Positions 24,022 through 35,002 of a DNA stretch of 64,000 bases are shown here, piece by piece. The first letter of the stretch is position 1. Each line of letters opens with the position of its first letter. The notes beneath the pieces were generated by a model. That model saw nothing but the letters and a program-made list of their open reading frames with translations, was not told the origin of the DNA and searched no databases. The stretch spans positions 160,001-224,000 of the forward strand of contig CBDCRP010000002.1 of the NCBI GenBank assembly GCA_965221165.1, read 5' to 3'. The position numbers and the translations under genes were made by a program. Source of the DNA: a bacterium (GTDB lineage Bacteria > UBA8248).

Positions 24022-25272
24022 TTGCACAGCGCGCTGAAAGGCCATTTGAGCCTCGATTCCGGACGTATCGTGGACGACATGGAACACCCCTTCACCTGCC
24101 CCGATACGGGCGGGAATTTACAGGGCAGCTACGACCTCGAGTGGATAAGGGCGCATGTGGACAGGGACGAGGTCGCCCGCAGACCCCGGGGCATCTGGCG
24201 CTGGCGCGAACTCCTGCCCGTGCGGGATGAGCGAAACGTGGTCTCGCTCGTCGAGGGCGACACCCCCCTCATCCACGCCGAGAGGCTCGGGGAATCGCTC
24301 GGGTACGGCAACCTCTACATCCTGGATGAATCGAGAAACCCCACGGGCTCGTTCAAGGACAGGGGCGGTTCGGTCACCATAAGCAAGTGCAAGGAAGTGG
24401 GGGTCGACCGCATCGTGCTGCCTTCTTCGGGCAACGCGGCGGCTTGTTTCAGCGCGTATTGCGCGCGGGGCGGAATCGAATTCATCGGCTTCGTGCGCGA
24501 CGACAGTTCGGCCGTTCATTGCTTGCAAGTAGGGGCCTACGGGGCGTTTGCGCTCATCATCGAGGGCGATCAGGGCGTGGGCGGGCGCTTCGCCGAAGAA
24601 GTGTCGAAAGAACTGGGCTGCCTGCACGCCACCCTGCCCCGCAACCTCTACAGAATCGAGGGAAAAAAGACGGCTGCCTATGAGATATCCGAAAAACTCG
24701 GCTGGCGCGCGCCCGATCGCGTCGTCTGCCCCACGGCGGGCGGCACGATGGCGCTCGCGATGGACCAGGGATTCCGCGAACTGCTGGCCCTGGGCTGGAT
24801 AGACAAGATGCCGGCGATCGACATCGTGCAACCCGATGGCTGCGCGCCCATCGTCAAAGCCCTCCACACGGGCGGAAAGGTCGAGCCCTGGGGCGAGGTG
24901 AGCACGAAATCGGCCGGCCTCACGAGCCCCTTCCCCGGTGCGGGCGAGCGTGTGGCCGCGGTGGTGCGGCGTTCGGAGGGCCACGGCGTGCTCGTGAGCG
25001 ATGCGATGAACCTGGAAGCCGAATTCCAGATCGCCGGACGCGAGGGGCTGTTCTTACAACCGGCTTCTGCGGCGTCCGTGGCAAGCCTGATGGAGGGCGC
25101 CGAGCGGCCCGGGAAGCCGGAAGCCGACGAGATAATCGTCTGCATCGGCACGGGCACGGGCAAGAACGCGGCGGAGGTGGCGGGCGAGGCCCTCGGCAGG
25201 CCGGGACGCATTCCGCCCGATATCGAGGCCTTCAAAAAAGCGCGCGCATCCTGGCGAGGAAACGGCTCCTGA
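24022..25272 (+). CDS. Threonine synthase-like PLP fold-II enzyme
   Basis: EGDTPL, NPTGSFKDRG, SSGNA, EGKKT and TGTG motifs. Confidence 0.85.
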   Translation: MHSALKGHLSLDSGRIVDDMEHPFTCPDTGGNLQGSYDLEWIRAHVDRDEVARRPRGIWRWRELLPVRDERNVVSLVEGDTPLIHAERLGESLGYGNLYILDESRNPTGSFKDRGGSVTISKCKEVGVDRIVLPSSGNAAACFSAYCARGGIEFIGFVRDDSSAVHCLQVGAYGAFALIIEGDQGVGGRFAEEVSKELGCLHATLPRNLYRIEGKKTAAYEISEKLGWRAPDRVVCPTAGGTMALAMDQGFRELLALGWIDKMPAIDIVQPDGCAPIVKALHTGGKVEPWGEVSTKSAGLTSPFPGAGERVAAVVRRSEGHGVLVSDAMNLEAEFQIAGREGLFLQPASAASVASLMEGAERPGKPEADEIIVCIGTGTGKNAAEVAGEALGRPGRIPPDIEAFKKARASWRGNGS

Positions 25273-29211: not shown

Positions 29212-29670
29212 CTATATGCTCACCTGGAAGTTCGGCAGGCGGACGCCGTCTTTGTCGCCCGTCGGCGGCGCGCTCAACTCCTCCAGCGTGGTTTCGCGTA
29301 GCGTCTTGTCTATCGCGTTTTCGAGTTTTTTCCATAAAACCCGGCTTCCGCACACCGGGATGTTCGGGCACGGCGAGGAAGGCGGCGTCTCCCCGCAATC
29401 CACGGGCTGAATCGTCTCCCCCACGGCGGAGAGAACGTCGCGCATGTTGATTCGAGAGGGCGGCAGCGCGAGGATGTAGCCGCCTCCCGGCCCCCTCGTG
29501 CTGCTCACCAGAGAGGCCCTGCGCATCTTCACGAACAACTGCTCGAGGTAGTGCTGGCTGATTTCCAGATTGCCGGCTATCTGTGGCAAGGGAACCGGGT
29601 GCGTCTGCGAATGCCTGGCCAGCTCTATCATGGCGAGCACGGCGTATCGTCCCTTGGTCGATATCTTCAT
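29212..29670 (-). CDS. Rrf2 family transcriptional regulator (IscR/CymR-like, 3 Cys)
   Basis: MKISTKGRYA, YLEQLF, S.RGPGGGY and C-x8-C-x5-C motifs. Confidence 0.93.
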   Translation of the reverse strand: MKISTKGRYAVLAMIELARHSQTHPVPLPQIAGNLEISQHYLEQLFVKMRRASLVSSTRGPGGGYILALPPSRINMRDVLSAVGETIQPVDCGETPPSSPCPNIPVCGSRVLWKKLENAIDKTLRETTLEELSAPPTGDKDGVRLPNFQVSI

Positions 29671-29708
29671 CGGCGAAATCCTCTCATCGGGTGTTTCGGC
29701 CTCATCCG

Positions 29709-30527
29709 CTAAACGAGCGACCCCTGTCCTTCGGGGGTTCCCGGGGTCTTGGCTCGACTGCGCCCGGCGAGCGCGCAAACCGGACAATCCGGGTCCTGCT
29801 CCACGGGCAAGCCTCCAAAGGCGTTGTTCCAGAAATCGGCCGTCATCAGTCTGTTCGACCAGGCGGGCTCAAGCCTCTCGAGAACCCGGAGCGCATCGGC
29901 GGCCTGCGCCATGCCCACGAAGCCCGCCACGGCGCCTAAAACGCCCGCATCCCCACAGTCGAGGCCACGCGCATTTGCGCCCTCCTCTCCCACCAGGCAG
30001 CGCAGACACGCGCTCTCACCCGGCAGAATCGTCATCACCTGGCCGAAAAAGCGCAAAACGCCCCCCATAATCCACGGCTTGCCCGATAGCGCGCATGCGT
30101 CGTTCAAGGTGAGCTTCGTGGCCAGATTATCGCTTCCATCGAGAATGACGTCATAAGGCGCGATGATCCGGGCGGCGTTCTCGCGCGTGAGCTTCAGTGG
30201 AATCTTATCGACCGCCACTTTGGCGGAGAGCCTGAATATGGAATCTGCGCCCGAGTCCACCTTCAGGCGACCCATATCTTCGGCTCTGTGCAGAATCTGG
30301 CGCGCGAGGTTGTCGAGCGTCACCGTGTCGTGATCCGCCAGGCCGATGCGCCCCACGCCCGACGCCGCAAGGGCGAGTGCTGCGGACGAACCCAGGCCGC
30401 CTGCTCCTACGATGAGGGCGGATGAGGCCGCCGGAGCGTTTTCATCCCCCAAGCGGCCCTTGGATGCGCCTGGGGAGGCCACCGGATTTTTTGGTGAGGA
30501 ACCCACGTGCGCCTTATGAAAATTCAC
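29709..30527 (-). CDS. ThiF/MoeB-family E1-like adenylyltransferase (active-type, lacks N-terminal RYxR)
   Basis: IVGAGGLG, D.D.V..DNLARQ, DGSDN, CLRC, catalytic-loop Cys and CPVC; GTG start overlaps the JAB stop. Confidence 0.9.
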   Translation of the reverse strand: MNFHKAHVGSSPKNPVASPGASKGRLGDENAPAASSALIVGAGGLGSSAALALAASGVGRIGLADHDTVTLDNLARQILHRAEDMGRLKVDSGADSIFRLSAKVAVDKIPLKLTRENAARIIAPYDVILDGSDNLATKLTLNDACALSGKPWIMGGVLRFFGQVMTILPGESACLRCLVGEEGANARGLDCGDAGVLGAVAGFVGMAQAADALRVLERLEPAWSNRLMTADFWNNAFGGLPVEQDPDCPVCALAGRSRAKTPGTPEGQGSLV

Positions 30528-31018
30528 GCGCCCGCCTCCTCCAGTATCTCCAGATTGCTCTCGACGAAAATTTTTCCCGCCGCTTCCCAGGAAAACACCT
30601 TTTGGCCGAGAACCACGCCATCGCGAACGCTCATGACGACGTGCTCCGCATCCGGGAACGCGGGAATATCCCCGAAAGGAACCGCCGCATCCACGTCTTC
30701 CTGTGAAAAATAGGCGTCCTCATCCGGGTGGCTGTGAAATATGCCGCGAACCACTTCGCCCGCCTCCTCCGCTTTTTTTACGATGCGCTCGAACTCGAAG
30801 GGATCGATCAAAAAAGCGCGCCGCGCCGTTCGGGGATATATTTCCGGGTCTTTCTCGTGCATCTCGTTTTGCACGTTTCTACAGGGCAGCAGAGCGAGAG
30901 CCTCTTCTTTCTCTCCCACTGCGCGCGGCGGGCCGATAATCAACCCGCAACACTCATCGGGATAAGCCGCGCGCGCATGGCGGTGCATCGCCTCCACCTG
31001 TTCACGATTCAAGCGCAC
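30524..31018 (-). CDS. JAB/MPN (M67) metallopeptidase, CysO-cysteine peptidase-like
   Basis: YPDECCG and JAMM motif FHSHP....FS.ED. Confidence 0.92.
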   Translation of the reverse strand: MRLNREQVEAMHRHARAAYPDECCGLIIGPPRAVGEKEEALALLPCRNVQNEMHEKDPEIYPRTARRAFLIDPFEFERIVKKAEEAGEVVRGIFHSHPDEDAYFSQEDVDAAVPFGDIPAFPDAEHVVMSVRDGVVLGQKVFSWEAAGKIFVESNLEILEEAGA

Positions 31019-31029
31019 ATCAAACCTCC

Positions 31030-31968
31030 CTAGCGCGCCTCGCTCAAGTACCTGTCCCCCCCGTCGGGGAACAGGGTGACGATGACGCCCTTGCCTATCC
31101 GTTTCGCCACCTCACGGACGCCGACGAGCGCGGCGCCTGCGGAGTGACCGATGAAAAGGCCCTCTTCTTTCGCTATTTTCTCGGCCAGGTCGTAGCTCTC
31201 CTCGGTGCTCGCCGGAATCAGGTGATCGTGCACGCTCTCATCGTAAATACCCGGGCGAATGGCCGTGGGTATGTGTTTCATTCCCTCCAGGCCGTGAAAC
31301 GATTCCGAGGGCATGACGGCATGGACCACGACGCCCGGCTTCCTCGCCTTGAGGCCCCGCCCCGTGCCCACCAGCGTGCCCGTCGTGCCGAGACCGGCCA
31401 CGAAATACTCCACGCGCCCCTCGGTCTGCTCCAGAATCTCGACCGCCGTGGTCTCGACGTGGGCGAGCGGGTTGGCCGGGTTGTCGTACTGGCACGGCAG
31501 GAAATATTTTTCCGGCTCATCGCGATACATCTTCGCCGCGAGGCGCTGCGCCCCGTCCGAGCCTTCCAAAGGGTCCGAGAGAACGATATCGGCCCCATAG
31601 CTCTTCAACGTCGCCTTGCGCTCATCGCTCGCATTCGCAGGCAGGACGAGGCGGACGGGAACCCCAAGCGCCGCTCCGATCATGGCGTAGGCGATGCCGG
31701 TGTTCCCGCTCGTGGAATCGAGAAGAATCTTGCCCGGCCGCAACTGCCCCGACTCCAGGCCGTCCTTTACCATGAAGAGCGCCGGCCTGTCCTTGACCGA
31801 GCCGCCCGGGTTGAACCACTCCGCCTTGGCGTACACCTCCACTTCCGGGAACTCGCCCTCGAACAACTTGATTTCGAGCAAGGGGGTGTTGCCGATACAC
31901 TTGATGATTGCGGAATCCTCTAAATTTCTGAATGCGCTTGTGGGATTCTCCACCGTCGATTCGACCAT
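31030..31968 (-). CDS. cysM: Cysteine synthase (CysM-like)
   Basis: IGNTPL, NPGGSVKDR, TSGNTG, GLGTTGT and DGGDRYLS motifs. Confidence 0.88.
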   Translation of the reverse strand: MVESTVENPTSAFRNLEDSAIIKCIGNTPLLEIKLFEGEFPEVEVYAKAEWFNPGGSVKDRPALFMVKDGLESGQLRPGKILLDSTSGNTGIAYAMIGAALGVPVRLVLPANASDERKATLKSYGADIVLSDPLEGSDGAQRLAAKMYRDEPEKYFLPCQYDNPANPLAHVETTAVEILEQTEGRVEYFVAGLGTTGTLVGTGRGLKARKPGVVVHAVMPSESFHGLEGMKHIPTAIRPGIYDESVHDHLIPASTEESYDLAEKIAKEEGLFIGHSAGAALVGVREVAKRIGKGVIVTLFPDGGDRYLSEAR

Positions 31969-32000
31969 TGATATGGCCCTCGTGCTTGATCCTGAAAGTT

Positions 32001-32645
32001 TCAGGAAATGCGCGCGCTCGTTTCCATGAAGCCACGCGAAAGATCGAAACGGGCCTGCGCAGTCGACCCCACCGTATCCTCTTCATCCACCAGGCGCCGC
32101 AAGACCCTGACGGCCAGCCACGCGCCCAAAGCTCCCTGGGTCGCCACCGTGCGCGCTCCCCTTTCACGCGAGGCCGCACCCGGCCTCCCGAGTGCGGCGG
32201 TTCCTTCGAGAATCTCACCCGCCTCACCTGCGGAGACGCCTTGTATGGTGAATCTTCCCGAAGGCTCGAATTTCTCGAAATCCGCAGATGCCTCATCTCC
32301 CAACCAGACGAGCGCGTCGAAAACCTCCTCCTCGTCCAGGTAACGGGAAACCAGCGTGCAATCGGGATTCAAACTCCTTACGCCATCGCCCACACAAGCG
32401 CCCAGGAAGGATGAAAGCGGCGATTCTTCCTTCAATCCATCGGCCCCATCCAGCGGACACCAGCCGACCCGCCCCACGCCCCCGGCGGCCAGATAGACCA
32501 GGGCGACGAGGGCGGCGCTTTTCTCTTCTGCCGAAAACGCGATGAGCACGGAAGAAGCCAGGAGGCGCTCCTGGCCGATCCCTCCCACCCCGGGCAGAAG
32601 AATGTGCCGGCTGTAGCGCTGAATCTGCTCTTCGCTCAAACCCAA
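32001..32645 (-). CDS. Degenerate ThiF/MoeB paralog (keeps RYSRH; lacks P-loop and Zn cysteines)
   Basis: LSEEQIQRYSRHILLPGVGGIGQERLLASSVLI, YLAAGGVG and SLNPD; TTG start after GAGGAG. Confidence 0.75.
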   Translation of the reverse strand: MGLSEEQIQRYSRHILLPGVGGIGQERLLASSVLIAFSAEEKSAALVALVYLAAGGVGRVGWCPLDGADGLKEESPLSSFLGACVGDGVRSLNPDCTLVSRYLDEEEVFDALVWLGDEASADFEKFEPSGRFTIQGVSAGEAGEILEGTAALGRPGAASRERGARTVATQGALGAWLAVRVLRRLVDEEDTVGSTAQARFDLSRGFMETSARIS

Positions 32646-32679
32646 GGGACGGTTCTCCTCTCGGGAGTATTGCGGGAGA

Positions 32680-32958
32680 TTAGAGGCCGCCCGCGATGGC
32701 CGGCACGATGGAGACCTCATCGCCATCGCTCACCGCCGTTCCCTCTCCCTGCAGGAAGCGGATGTCCTCCTGGTTCACATAAATGTTCACGAACCGGCGC
32801 AGCTTGCCCTGCTCGTCGTAAAGGCGCTGGCGAATGCCCGCAAATTGCCGGTCGAGGTTTTCGAGCACTTCCTTGATATCCGCGCCCCCGATCTCCACGG
32901 CGTCCTGCTGCTGGGTGAACTCCTGTAAAGGTGTCGGAATACGAACCGTTACCGCCAT
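32680..32958 (-). CDS. MoaD/ThiS/CysO-like ubiquitin-fold sulfur carrier
   Basis: V.VRIPTPL, RRFVNIYVN.EDIR, C-terminal IVPAIAGG-L; RBS AGGAG. Confidence 0.93.
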   Translation of the reverse strand: MAVTVRIPTPLQEFTQQQDAVEIGGADIKEVLENLDRQFAGIRQRLYDEQGKLRRFVNIYVNQEDIRFLQGEGTAVSDGDEVSIVPAIAGGL

Positions 32959-33014
32959 TTCTGTCTCCTGATCTGTCTGAAACCCCTCTTTTCGGGGTGA
33001 ACGAAATAAGATTT

Positions 33015-33974
33015 CTAATGAAATTGCTGCTCCAGACTATAATACCTCTCCCAGCCATCGGGAATGACGACCACCACGTTTTCCTCCGGACTCATCCGCC
33101 GCGCTACGCGCAGGGCCGCGCAAACGGCCGCGCCCGCCGAAATGCCTGCGGCCATGCCCTCCTCCCGGCTCAGGGCCTTGCTCATGTCGTAGGCGTCCGA
33201 ATCGCTCACCTGCGCCATTTCGTCGATGATCGCCCGGTTCAACACCCCGGGAATGAAGCCGGCGCCTATTCCCTGTATATGGTGCGGTCCCGGCTCCCCG
33301 CCCGAAAGAACGGGCGATGCGGCGGGCTCCACCCCCACGATGAGGGTTTCGGGGCTTCTCTCCTTCAGTACCTCGCCCACTCCCGTGATGGTGCCTCCCG
33401 TCCCCACGCCCGCCACGAAGGCGTCTATCGATTCCGCGCCCATGTCGCGCAAAATCTCGCGCGCCGTGGTCCTGCGGTGGATTTCCGGGTTGGCCGGGTT
33501 GTTGAACTGCTGGGGCATGAAATAGTCCGGATTTTCGGCCAATATGGCTTCCGCCTTGACGAGGGAGCCGTACATGCCGCCTTCGCTGGAGCTGAAGACC
33601 ACCTCCGCCCCATAGCCGGTGAGCAGGGAGTGCCGCTCGTGACTCATGCTCTTGCTGAGCACGATGATGGTCCTGTAGCCGCGTATGGCGCCGATGAGCG
33701 CCAAGCCGATCCCCGTGTTGCCGCTCGTAGGCTCGATGATCGTTCCGCCGGGCTTCAGGAGTCCGCGCCGCTCGCCGTCGAGCACCATGCTGAGCGCGAT
33801 GCGATCCTTCACGCTTCCGCCGGGATTATATTGCTCGAGTTTGGCGAACACGCGCGCGCCGGATGCGTCGGGCAGACGCTGCAACCGGACGAGGCTCGTG
33901 CCCCCTATGCGATCGATGAGCGAGGGAAGCGCCCTTAAAATCTGGGGCGGGCGACCCCGTGTGCCCAATGCCAT
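33015..33974 (-). CDS. cysK: Cysteine synthase A (CysK-like)
   Basis: NPGGSVKDR, EPTSGNTG, QQFNNPAN, GVGTGGT and HHIQGIGAGF motifs. Confidence 0.92.
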   Translation of the reverse strand: MALGTRGRPPQILRALPSLIDRIGGTSLVRLQRLPDASGARVFAKLEQYNPGGSVKDRIALSMVLDGERRGLLKPGGTIIEPTSGNTGIGLALIGAIRGYRTIIVLSKSMSHERHSLLTGYGAEVVFSSSEGGMYGSLVKAEAILAENPDYFMPQQFNNPANPEIHRRTTAREILRDMGAESIDAFVAGVGTGGTITGVGEVLKERSPETLIVGVEPAASPVLSGGEPGPHHIQGIGAGFIPGVLNRAIIDEMAQVSDSDAYDMSKALSREEGMAAGISAGAAVCAALRVARRMSPEENVVVVIPDGWERYYSLEQQFH

Positions 33975-34052: not shown

Positions 34053-34180
34053 TCCCCATTAAAGAATTTTTTGTTTTTTCTCCTTTTCGGCGCACCCTCG
34101 CCACACTCCCAATATATTCTCCGTGTGCTACATTCTCAGGACGCATCGTTTTATGTTGGATGAGAAAAGGAGAGCGCGAG

Positions 34181-35002
34181 ATGCCCCATTCCGCAGACGT
34201 TCCCCCCATTGCCTTGACGATAGCGGGTTCGGACTCCGGCGGCGGCGCAGGGATTCAGGCCGATCTCAAGACCTTCAGCGCATTCGGCGTCTATGGCGCC
34301 TCGGTCATCACCGCGCTCACGGCGCAAAATACCGTGGGCGTACAGGGGGTGCACGGCGCTCCGCCCGATTTCATCGCGGCGCAATTCGACTCGGTGTGCT
34401 CGGACTTGGAAATTGCAAGCGCGAAAATCGGCATGCTCGCCACGGTCGACGTCATCGAGGTCGTCGCCGAGAAGCTCAAGGCGCACGCGCTCGCGCGCGT
34501 CGTGCTCGACCCGGTGATGGTCGCCAAAAGCGGCGATCGTCTCCTGGCGCCCGACGCCAGAGACGCGCTCGTCGAAAAACTCTTTCCGCTGGCCGAGGTC
34601 GTCACCCCCAACACGGAGGAGGCGCGCGACATTCTGGAGATCCCCGAGATAGAGAACCTCGCACAGATGAAGGACGCCGCCCGAACCCTCCACGAGCGGG
34701 GGGCGAAATGCGTTCTGCTCAAGGGAGGCCACATCACCGACGGGGCGGTGGATATTTTTTTCGATGGAGAAACCGAGGTCGCCCTCGAGGGCAGGCGCAT
34801 CGACACCCCGCACACCCACGGCACGGGATGCACGCTCTCCTCCGCCATTGCGGCGGGGCTGGCCCTGGGCGACTCCACCATCGAGGCGGTGAGACGGGCG
34901 AAGGATTTCATTCAGGGCGCCATCGAGAACGCGCTGGCCATCGGAAACGGCAGAGGCCCGCTCAATCACATGTACCGTCAGCCCAAAGAGAAATCACCAT
35001 GA
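34181..35002 (+). CDS. thiD: Hydroxymethylpyrimidine/phosphomethylpyrimidine kinase
   Basis: LTIAGSDSGGGAGIQADLKT, DPVM, TPN and HTHGTGCT motifs. Confidence 0.95.
   Translation: MPHSADVPPIALTIAGSDSGGGAGIQADLKTFSAFGVYGASVITALTAQNTVGVQGVHGAPPDFIAAQFDSVCSDLEIASAKIGMLATVDVIEVVAEKLKAHALARVVLDPVMVAKSGDRLLAPDARDALVEKLFPLAEVVTPNTEEARDILEIPEIENLAQMKDAARTLHERGAKCVLLKGGHITDGAVDIFFDGETEVALEGRRIDTPHTHGTGCTLSSAIAAGLALGDSTIEAVRRAKDFIQGAIENALAIGNGRGPLNHMYRQPKEKSP

Follow-up and report, generated by a model that had tools for sequence, protein, structure and literature searches.

In the heterodimeric ubiquitin-type activating enzymes (E1s) of eukaryotes, the inactive subunit donates an arginine. Two of these enzymes, NAE1(APPBP1)–UBA3 and SAE1–SAE2, are described as pseudo-symmetric dimers of an inactive and an active adenylation subunit (PMC12355090, PMC10557695). 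Such one-dead/one-live dimers are taken for a hallmark of eukaryotic ubiquitin-type systems, the exception among bacteria being BilD. This E1, from type II BilABCD anti-phage operons, is a pseudo-dimer of an inactive and an active adenylation domain with one active site, and its authors note that every other E1-like protein known from bacteria is a homodimer (PMC10557695). Bacterial MoeB, ThiF and Cap2 are described as homodimers there and in reviews (PMC12355090), and in MoeB and ThiF the N-terminus of one monomer is reported to complete the active site of the other (PMC13139853). In yeast Tcd1–Tcd2, the tRNA cyclic N6-threonylcarbamoyladenosine (ct6A) dehydratase, both subunits are ThiF paralogues, and Tcd1, though inactive, is required and contributes an arginine finger (R59) to the Tcd2 site; where a species has only one such gene, the enzyme is a homodimer (PMC13139853). 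In mycobacteria, the sulfur carrier CysO, which acts with CysM and the peptidase Mec+, is sulfurated by MoeZR (PMC3227635). Operons of ThiS/MoaD, E1, JAB and cysteine synthase genes, in which the E1s are rhodanese-fused, were presented in a 2006 survey, whose passages on them make no mention of an inactive E1 partner (PMC1779556). Our search of the open-access literature (CC-licensed PMC articles and bioRxiv) found no description of a two-gene, inactive-plus-active ThiF/MoeB pair in bacteria. Here we report a candidate for such a pair in a bacterium of the GTDB lineage UBA8248 (assembly GCA_965221165.1, contig CBDCRP010000002.1, positions 160,001 to 224,000 of the forward strand; these 64,000 nucleotides are referred to below as the window). 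Seven tightly spaced genes on the minus strand (29212–33974) have the order cysK-cysO-A-cysM-JAB-B-Rrf2, where A and B are ThiF/MoeB paralogues that each retain one half of the motifs of a single MoeB. From their motifs, conservation and predicted complex, A and B together probably form an inactive-plus-active heterodimeric E1-like adenylyltransferase of CysO.

B carries the catalytic core. It scored 204.2 bits with the Pfam ThiF profile (PF00899; gathering threshold 28.1), the match beginning only at profile position 20 of 238, and aligned with Escherichia coli MoeB (1jw9_B) over MoeB residues 28–248; E. coli MoeB and ThiF are its closest solved relatives by sequence (E 2.6e-36 and 1.7e-35). 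It reached the cut-off of no NCBIfam MoeB/ThiF equivalog model (best NF006444, 216 bits against 449), and by its sequence is a member of the ThiF/MoeB family under no named equivalog. All the motifs that an earlier note on this DNA had ascribed to B are present (GAGGLG, NLARQ, DGSDN, the zinc pairs CLRC and CPVC, and a catalytic-loop cysteine; Table 1). G44, R76, K89 and D133 of B align with G41, R73, K86 and D130 of MoeB, named as adenylation residues in a 2025 review (PMC12355090). Among the 20 copies of B examined, the ATP-site residues G41/G43/G46, R76, K89 and D130/D133 are invariant, as are C174, C177, C191, C248 and C251, and the catalytic residues overall are invariant or near-invariant. 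B consists of a single ThiF domain, with no inserted catalytic-cysteine domain or ubiquitin-fold domain. It also lacks the N-terminal helix, as the same note had observed: no RYxR motif was found in any of the 20 copies, and the N-terminal tail, disordered over residues 1–28 in the AlphaFold2 (AF2) monomer model (predicted local distance difference test score, pLDDT, <50), is reduced to just 7–11 residues ahead of the first strand in five of them.

A carries what B has shed. Its frame starts at TTG (32643–32645), preceded by a Shine-Dalgarno-like GAGGAG, and TTG is the start codon in 19 of 20 copies, with ATG in the other. A longer frame of 241 amino acids from an ATG at 32726 was considered as the A gene and rejected, since several relatives have an in-frame stop five codons upstream of the TTG. 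A gave no Pfam match above threshold, ThiF included, and NCBIfam MoeB models matched it only at profile positions 9–72 (residues 28–94 of the 241-amino-acid frame), whereas B is picked up only from about position 20–32 of the profiles on. In E. coli MoeB it matches residues 4–64, so that A and B are indeed complementary half-sets of one MoeB. In a family alignment of 31 A proteins (down to 38% identity), 33 columns are invariant; R10, Y11, S12, H14, L16, L17, P18, G21, G22, G24 and Q25 are among them, and R13, the counterpart of the trans arginine of MoeB and ThiF, is kept in 30 of the 31. Also invariant are V192, G193, S194, T195, A198, R199 and F200 of a C-terminal motif (VGSTxQARFDLSRG). 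NLxRQ, DxxD and CxxC are absent from this alignment and the nucleotide loop is replaced by FS.xEE.AA, in agreement with the earlier reading of the window's A, in which RYSRH is followed by the degenerate IAFSAEEKSA.

Beyond its N-terminus, A has a Rossmann core homologous to that of B (hhalign probability 88.5%, E 2.8e-6, A 26–152 against B 30–163). In Foldseek, the top matches of its AF2 model were ThiF 1zud (E 6.9e-9), Uba4 and MoeB 1jwa (TMq, the query TM-score, 0.63); for ThiF, Uba4 and MoeB together, E ranged from 7e-9 to 5e-7 and TMq from 0.57 to 0.63, with SAE1 chains further down. A is thus predicted to adopt a ThiF/E1 Rossmann-type fold. Simple gene fission, with the A N-terminus and B as pieces of one gene, was rejected because A carries a complete, if degenerate, Rossmann domain of its own.

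We estimated ratios of nonsynonymous to synonymous substitution (dN/dS) by the NG86 method, as medians or sums over 19 copies. They were 0.08 for cysK, 0.085 for cysO, 0.09 for cysM, 0.12 for both JAB and Rrf2, 0.24 for B and 0.33–0.35 for A as a whole. In B, the N-terminal tail (residues 2–33) was close to neutral at 0.67 and the core (34–255) stood at 0.18. In A, values were 0.145 for residues 2–62, 0.40 for 63–110, 0.52 for 111–165 and 0.31 for 166–214, the strongest constraint therefore falling on the N-terminal part with the arginine helix. A might still be suspected of having no function and of being the decaying leftover of a moeB duplication or disruption, as it has no Pfam match and evolves fastest in the operon (~65% identity, compared to 77–93% for the other genes), and as true A relics exist in three genomes (G001, G006 and G046). 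We regard this as very improbable: the A frame is intact in 20 of 20 copies, full-length A matches are stop-free in 29 of the 30 A-bearing genomes, the Shine-Dalgarno-like sequence and start are in place, and the low N-terminal dN/dS goes with the 33 invariant columns. Moreover, where A has really decayed it is deleted to less than 360 nt, with B gone as well. By these measures A is under purifying selection and maintained rather than decaying at random, and the dN/dS check that the earlier note had proposed for the degenerate copy agrees with its view.

We next examined how A and B are distributed in all 51 species genomes of the phylum, accepting B orthologues at E <= 6e-68. Both genes were found in 29 genomes and neither in 21, B occurred alone in none, and A lay at a contig break in the remaining one, so that the co-occurrence expected by the earlier note holds. 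The 30 genomes with A belong to one family (g1, 20 of 22 plus the window's genome; g2, 5 of 5; g3, 1 of 1; g17, 2 of 4; g18, 1 of 1), and in 29 of them a B orthologue lies on the same contig 1.46–1.92 kb past the end of A. The sole genome with A and no B, G004, has contig breaks on both sides, adjoining A and JAB. In G024, B shares its contig with no more than the 3' part of A, located at the contig end, and another contig bears a second A match that contains an internal TGA. In all 21 genomes without A, the B orthologue was absent, the best matches (E 1e-43 to 1e-49) being long rhodanese-type enzymes. The gene order of the window recurs in 19 of the 20 loci fetched, the 20th being cut by a contig end, and also in L033–L038, L132 and L133 as far as their contigs reach. 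The fragmented genome G025, of the same order, has a partial A-like match (E 1.3e-12, residues 29–104) and a 48%-identical B-like piece, both of which are below our thresholds. G005, for its part, has two differing full operon copies (contigs C6 and C8; L015 and L016), with A 69% and 79% identical to the window's; since this bin is 16% contaminated, the copies probably come from two strains binned together.

Family members without A retain cysK-cysO-cysM-JAB-Rrf2, and several bear traces of what was lost. In G001 and G006, sister genomes nested in their genus (support 0.99), all that is left of A in the cysO-cysM spacer is its final ~25 codons (E 4e-8 and 1e-5; with a frameshift in the G001 copy), and a spacer of 125–148 nt has taken the place of B. 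G046 retains stop-bearing traces of A from both its N- and its C-terminal end (E 8e-6 and 8e-7), and G041, the sister of G043, which has both genes, has a C-terminal relic of B (E 3e-10). G048 and G050 showed only VGST-type matches of 8–9 residues (E 0.35–0.4), which we did not count as relics. Placed on a FastTree phylogeny of five concatenated operon proteins, which is not a species tree, these cases amount to at least three independent joint losses of the non-adjacent A and B with the intervening genes retained. Altogether, the survey supports that A and B are retained or lost only together.

The window's genome has a second E1-like enzyme, a protein of 433 amino acids (G000:C3, locus L119, 3355–4656, plus strand) in which an N-terminal rhodanese domain precedes a complete ThiF domain (matched from the first profile position) and which has an RYSRH of its own. 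A counterpart is present in all but three of the 51 genomes and presumably stands in where A and B have been deleted. The repeated joint deletions, in which cysO-cysM-JAB is kept, point to a dedicated E1 and a general rhodanese-ThiF enzyme that are mutually replaceable.

The complex of A and B was predicted from B, ATP and A, with each protein given its own alignment, alongside three controls. The interface score (ipSAE) was 0.92, 0.92 and 0.91 for A:B, and 0.00 for the best of the controls; the mark is reached by 58 of 80 solved complexes and by 2 of 110 mismatched pairs, counts that are only rough here because our own alignments and the ATP riding along differ from the tool's calibration. 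At least 90% of the contacts were common to the runs, and the partner pLDDT was at least 79. In the model, residues 6, 9–14, 16–18 and 20 of A touch residues 70–72, 74–76, 78 and 81–83 of B, around the NLARQ loop, and helix 191–214 of B packs against A 166–183 and A 43–56 in the canonical dimer face. A 196–209, which overlaps the C-terminal motif, contacts B 226–239; this motif has pLDDT <50 in the monomer model and is ordered only against B in the complex. None of B residues 1–33 is in the predicted interface, and 16 of the 33 invariant residues of A fall within its 55 residues (Fisher p 0.002). The prediction thus gives the heterodimer, with the RYSRH helix of A on the ATP-phosphate loop of B, that the earlier note had anticipated. 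Because proteins from families with solved dimers can score well on what the predictor has already learned, the A:B score speaks for likeness and not for binding, and it may in part echo solved MoeB, ThiF and E1 dimers.

Several further points weigh against the heterodimer reading. The trans arginines of MoeB (R14) and ThiF (R11) are reported not to be catalytically essential, and E. coli TcdA lacks a trans arginine and still works as a homodimer (PMC13139853, 2026). In yeast, the R59A change in Tcd1 had little effect (PMC13139853), a warning against assuming an essential arginine in A. Given these reports, arginine donation need not make A and B an obligate pair, and B might be active alone. 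R13 is a His in one A family member (P0059), and the C-terminal motif, near-invariant in most, is replaced in one genus by a shorter AGFDF-type end (P0122 and the A of L132). Confidence in the AF2 monomer models is only moderate (pLDDT 69 and pTM, the predicted TM-score, 0.72 for A; pLDDT 62 for B). A is the fastest-evolving gene of the operon, and its middle is relaxed, with dN/dS of 0.4–0.5. A Pfam scan found no rhodanese domain in A or B, which leaves B without an evident sulfur donor. The joint losses speak for one functional module rather than for physical contact and, read from the gene content of the genomes, the A/B system is dispensable, several lineages having dropped both genes while keeping cysO-cysM-JAB. 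For these reasons, the claim of an obligate inactive-plus-active E1 stands in part: the genes are kept and lost together and a heterodimer is predicted, but "obligate" overstated the case for a dispensable system whose arginine is of a kind reported as non-essential. Obligate pairing and an essential arginine are both unproven.

The same points give some room to an alternative in which B is an ordinary homodimer without a trans arginine, like TcdA, and A an accessory pseudoenzyme of the same module, which might dock CysO, CysM, JAB or a sulfur donor and so offset the missing rhodanese domain. Every catalytic and zinc residue is kept in B, its dimer helix (residues 195–214) resembles that of homodimeric MoeB, the arginine finger is non-essential in MoeB and ThiF and absent from TcdA in the work cited above, and joint loss would suit any two parts of one module. 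Nevertheless, we judge this reading unlikely, as constraint in A is highest in precisely the N-terminal helix of MoeB, with its invariant RYS.H, and that same helix has been shed by B in every copy examined. Moreover, the A:B model has the canonical dimer face with this helix on the NLARQ loop of B, and B-only genomes number 0 of 51 despite at least three loss events.

Less probable still is that A is a regulatory pseudoenzyme which draws B into one-site heterodimers or keeps it inactive, and thereby tunes CysO activation. The predicted interface would fit this role, as would the TTG start of A, which may set a differing expression level, and the Rrf2 regulator within the operon; fine-tuning of this sort is speculated on for yeast Tcd1–Tcd2 (PMC13139853). 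B, however, has no arginine helix of its own, so the crippled form would be B:B rather than A:B, and an inhibitor could go while B stays, yet no B-only genome was seen.

In the heterodimeric E1 that we favour, A and B would form a 1:1 pseudo-symmetric dimer with a single active site. In this scheme, whose chemistry follows that of the mycobacterial CysO pathway, the JAB peptidase would first trim the residue after the CysO GG; such trimming by the operon's own peptidase before activation is implied by the C-terminus of CysO, which in 19 of 20 copies (loci L013–L032) is GG plus one or two residues (L, R, LY or VG). (The cysO copy of L025, in G015, has a differing C-terminus in the ORF, or open reading frame, call, perhaps owing to a frameshift or to an error in that call.) B would then bind ATP and the processed C-terminus and form the CysO-adenylate, while A, unable to bind nucleotide, would supply the partner surface of the dimer and the RYSRH helix. 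R13 of A would reach the ATP-phosphate site of B much as the R14 of one MoeB subunit reaches into the other. After thiocarboxylation, CysM would turn CysO-COSH to cysteine and the JAB enzyme would release it, again on the mycobacterial model.

As to origin, the outgroups G034, G036, G039 and G040 have cysK-cysO-moeB, with one complete MoeB of 270–280 amino acids that matches both the N-terminus of A and B. A fills the slot right after cysO in which the outgroups have full-length moeB, and is hence probably the degenerated original gene, with B a copy placed after JAB. We infer from these sequences that A and B are diverged copies of one CysO-linked MoeB, separated by duplication and then by complementary loss. 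In an A-profile scan of genome contigs made to look beyond the phylum, six of the 80 loci listed, a list that may lack records close to the window's genome, are true A genes. The remaining 74 are MoeBs of the ordinary kind, which have RYSRH, NLxRQ and, in 73 of 74, a GxGGLG loop (GAGGLS in L075). At the 50%-cluster level of 1.84 billion proteins, just eight representatives reached E <= 1e-30 with the A profile. By these searches the A family is small.

How the pair compares with the systems described above can now be set out. MoeB–MoaD and ThiF–ThiS (1jw9/1jwa, 1zud) share its fold and chemistry and are closest to the model of A by fold, but MoeB and ThiF are one-gene homodimers with two sites, whereas here the helix and the catalytic core are on separate gene products, so that a dimer can have at most one complete site. 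Unlike the eukaryotic heterodimeric E1s, the A/B system has no inserted catalytic-cysteine domain, ubiquitin-fold domain or ubiquitin-conjugating enzyme (E2), its substrate is a sulfur carrier for cysteine synthesis instead of a protein modifier, and its origin is independent and within one bacterial family. BilD is a single chain that includes a CYS domain, works with an E2 and acts in defence, while A and B are two genes set apart by cysM and JAB, in primary sulfur metabolism. With BilD already known as an inactive-plus-active adenylation architecture, A/B would not be the first parallel of the eukaryotic design among bacteria. By analogy, Tcd1–Tcd2 is the closest mechanistic counterpart; it differs in being eukaryotic and in acting on tRNA, and is described as having larger fold parts and extra C-terminal domains in both subunits (PMC13139853). 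The mycobacterial CysO/CysM/Mec+ system has the same carrier, CysM-type enzyme and JAB peptidase, but MoeZR is a single rhodanese-fused E1 where the present locus has a split A/B without rhodanese.

The features of the operon are collected in Table 1; each motif named in the earlier note was confirmed at the position given for it. It is of the CysO type, a ThiS/MoaD-like carrier with a C-terminal GG, a CysM-type pyridoxal phosphate (PLP)-dependent enzyme and a JAB peptidase being encoded together. The GTG start of B overlaps the JAB stop (GTGA). A Pfam and NCBIfam scan found no E2-like gene among the operon genes, and a scan for promoters and terminators gave site counts not above those of shuffled sequences (2 versus a mean of 1.0; 6 versus 4.6). 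A search for sequencing runs listed two DNA-type contig sets of one study and no RNA set, a result without bearing on expression. Elsewhere in the window, a ThiD-type phosphomethylpyrimidine kinase (PF08543, 328 bits; 34160–35002, plus strand) is divergent from the operon, and a further PLP-dependent enzyme with a threonine-synthase/cysteine-synthase fold lies at 24022–25272 (plus strand).

Table 1. Genes of the cysK-cysO-A-cysM-JAB-B-Rrf2 operon and motifs of A and B, in window coordinates.
Feature	Position	Strand	Basis or remark
cysK-type cysteine synthase A	33015..33974	-	TIGR01139 cysK 398 bits, cut-off 351; Pfam PALP; first operon gene
CysO-like ThiS/MoaD sulfur carrier, 92 aa, end AIAGG+L	32680..32958	-	Pfam ThiS 63.7 bits; TIGR01687 at its cut-off
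A, 214-aa degenerate ThiF-fold protein (predicted), TTG start, proposed inactive subunit	32001..32645	-	family alignment, fold match
A, RYSRH, residues 10–14	32604..32618	-	R13 is the counterpart of the MoeB/ThiF trans arginine
A, IAFSAEEKSA, degenerate stretch at the GxGxxG nucleotide-loop position	32514..32543	-	family alignment
A, VGSTAQARFDLSRG, conserved C-terminal motif, residues 192–205	32031..32072	-	family alignment
cysM-type PLP enzyme	31030..31968	-	TIGR01138 339 bits, under its 394 cut-off; Pfam PALP 214 bits
Prok-JAB (Mec+-like) metallopeptidase	30524..31018	-	PF14464 72.6 bits
B, 272-aa ThiF/MoeB putative catalytic subunit without N-terminal RYxR helix	29709..30527	-	Pfam ThiF
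B, N-terminal tail, residues 1–33, low complexity, variable	30429..30527	-	dN/dS, models
B, GAGGLG nucleotide loop	30390..30407	-	alignment, coordinates checked
B, NLARQ, R76 aligned with MoeB R73	30297..30311	-	alignment; residue role from PMC12355090
B, DGSDN, D133 aligned with MoeB D130	30126..30140	-	alignment
B, zinc pairs CLRC (29997–30008) and CPVC (29775–29786)	29775..30008	-	invariant Cys
B, loop Cys191 in DCGD, between the two zinc pairs	29949..29960	-	invariant in 20 copies
Rrf2-family regulator (IscR/CymR-like), last operon gene	29212..29670	-	Pfam Rrf2 123 bits, match from residue 42 of long ORF

Proteins that may be further stand-alone inactive E1 subunits, judged by their motifs, occur in other lineages and phyla. 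Seven short ThiF-like proteins of 215–232 amino acids (P0130, P0132, P0134, P0159, P0164, P0183 and P0237), whose source names include Binataceae and Nitrospirota metagenome-assembled genomes, retain both the N-terminal RYSRQ/RYCRQ helix and the zinc CxxC pairs, with a degenerate nucleotide loop and no NLxRQ segment. A metagenome scan with P0134 gave one weak locus (L123, 27% identity), and a search with P0164 found no match in the 51 genomes of the phylum. We put forward, tentatively, that A/B is an independently evolved two-gene inactive/active E1 in primary sulfur metabolism and perhaps the first of a wider class of stand-alone inactive ThiF paralogues. A-type proteins are presently annotated as "hypothetical", an annotation that there would be reason to revise if the pair is real. 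If so, A and B would be a living example of duplication, complementary degeneration and arrival at an obligate heterodimer in an E2-free bacterial sulfur-carrier system, the route thought to have given the eukaryotic NEDD8 and SUMO E1s. They would also provide a small, E2-free model for what an inactive subunit and its arginine helix contribute, and evidence that simple subfunctionalisation in primary metabolism can yield the inactive/active E1 architecture.

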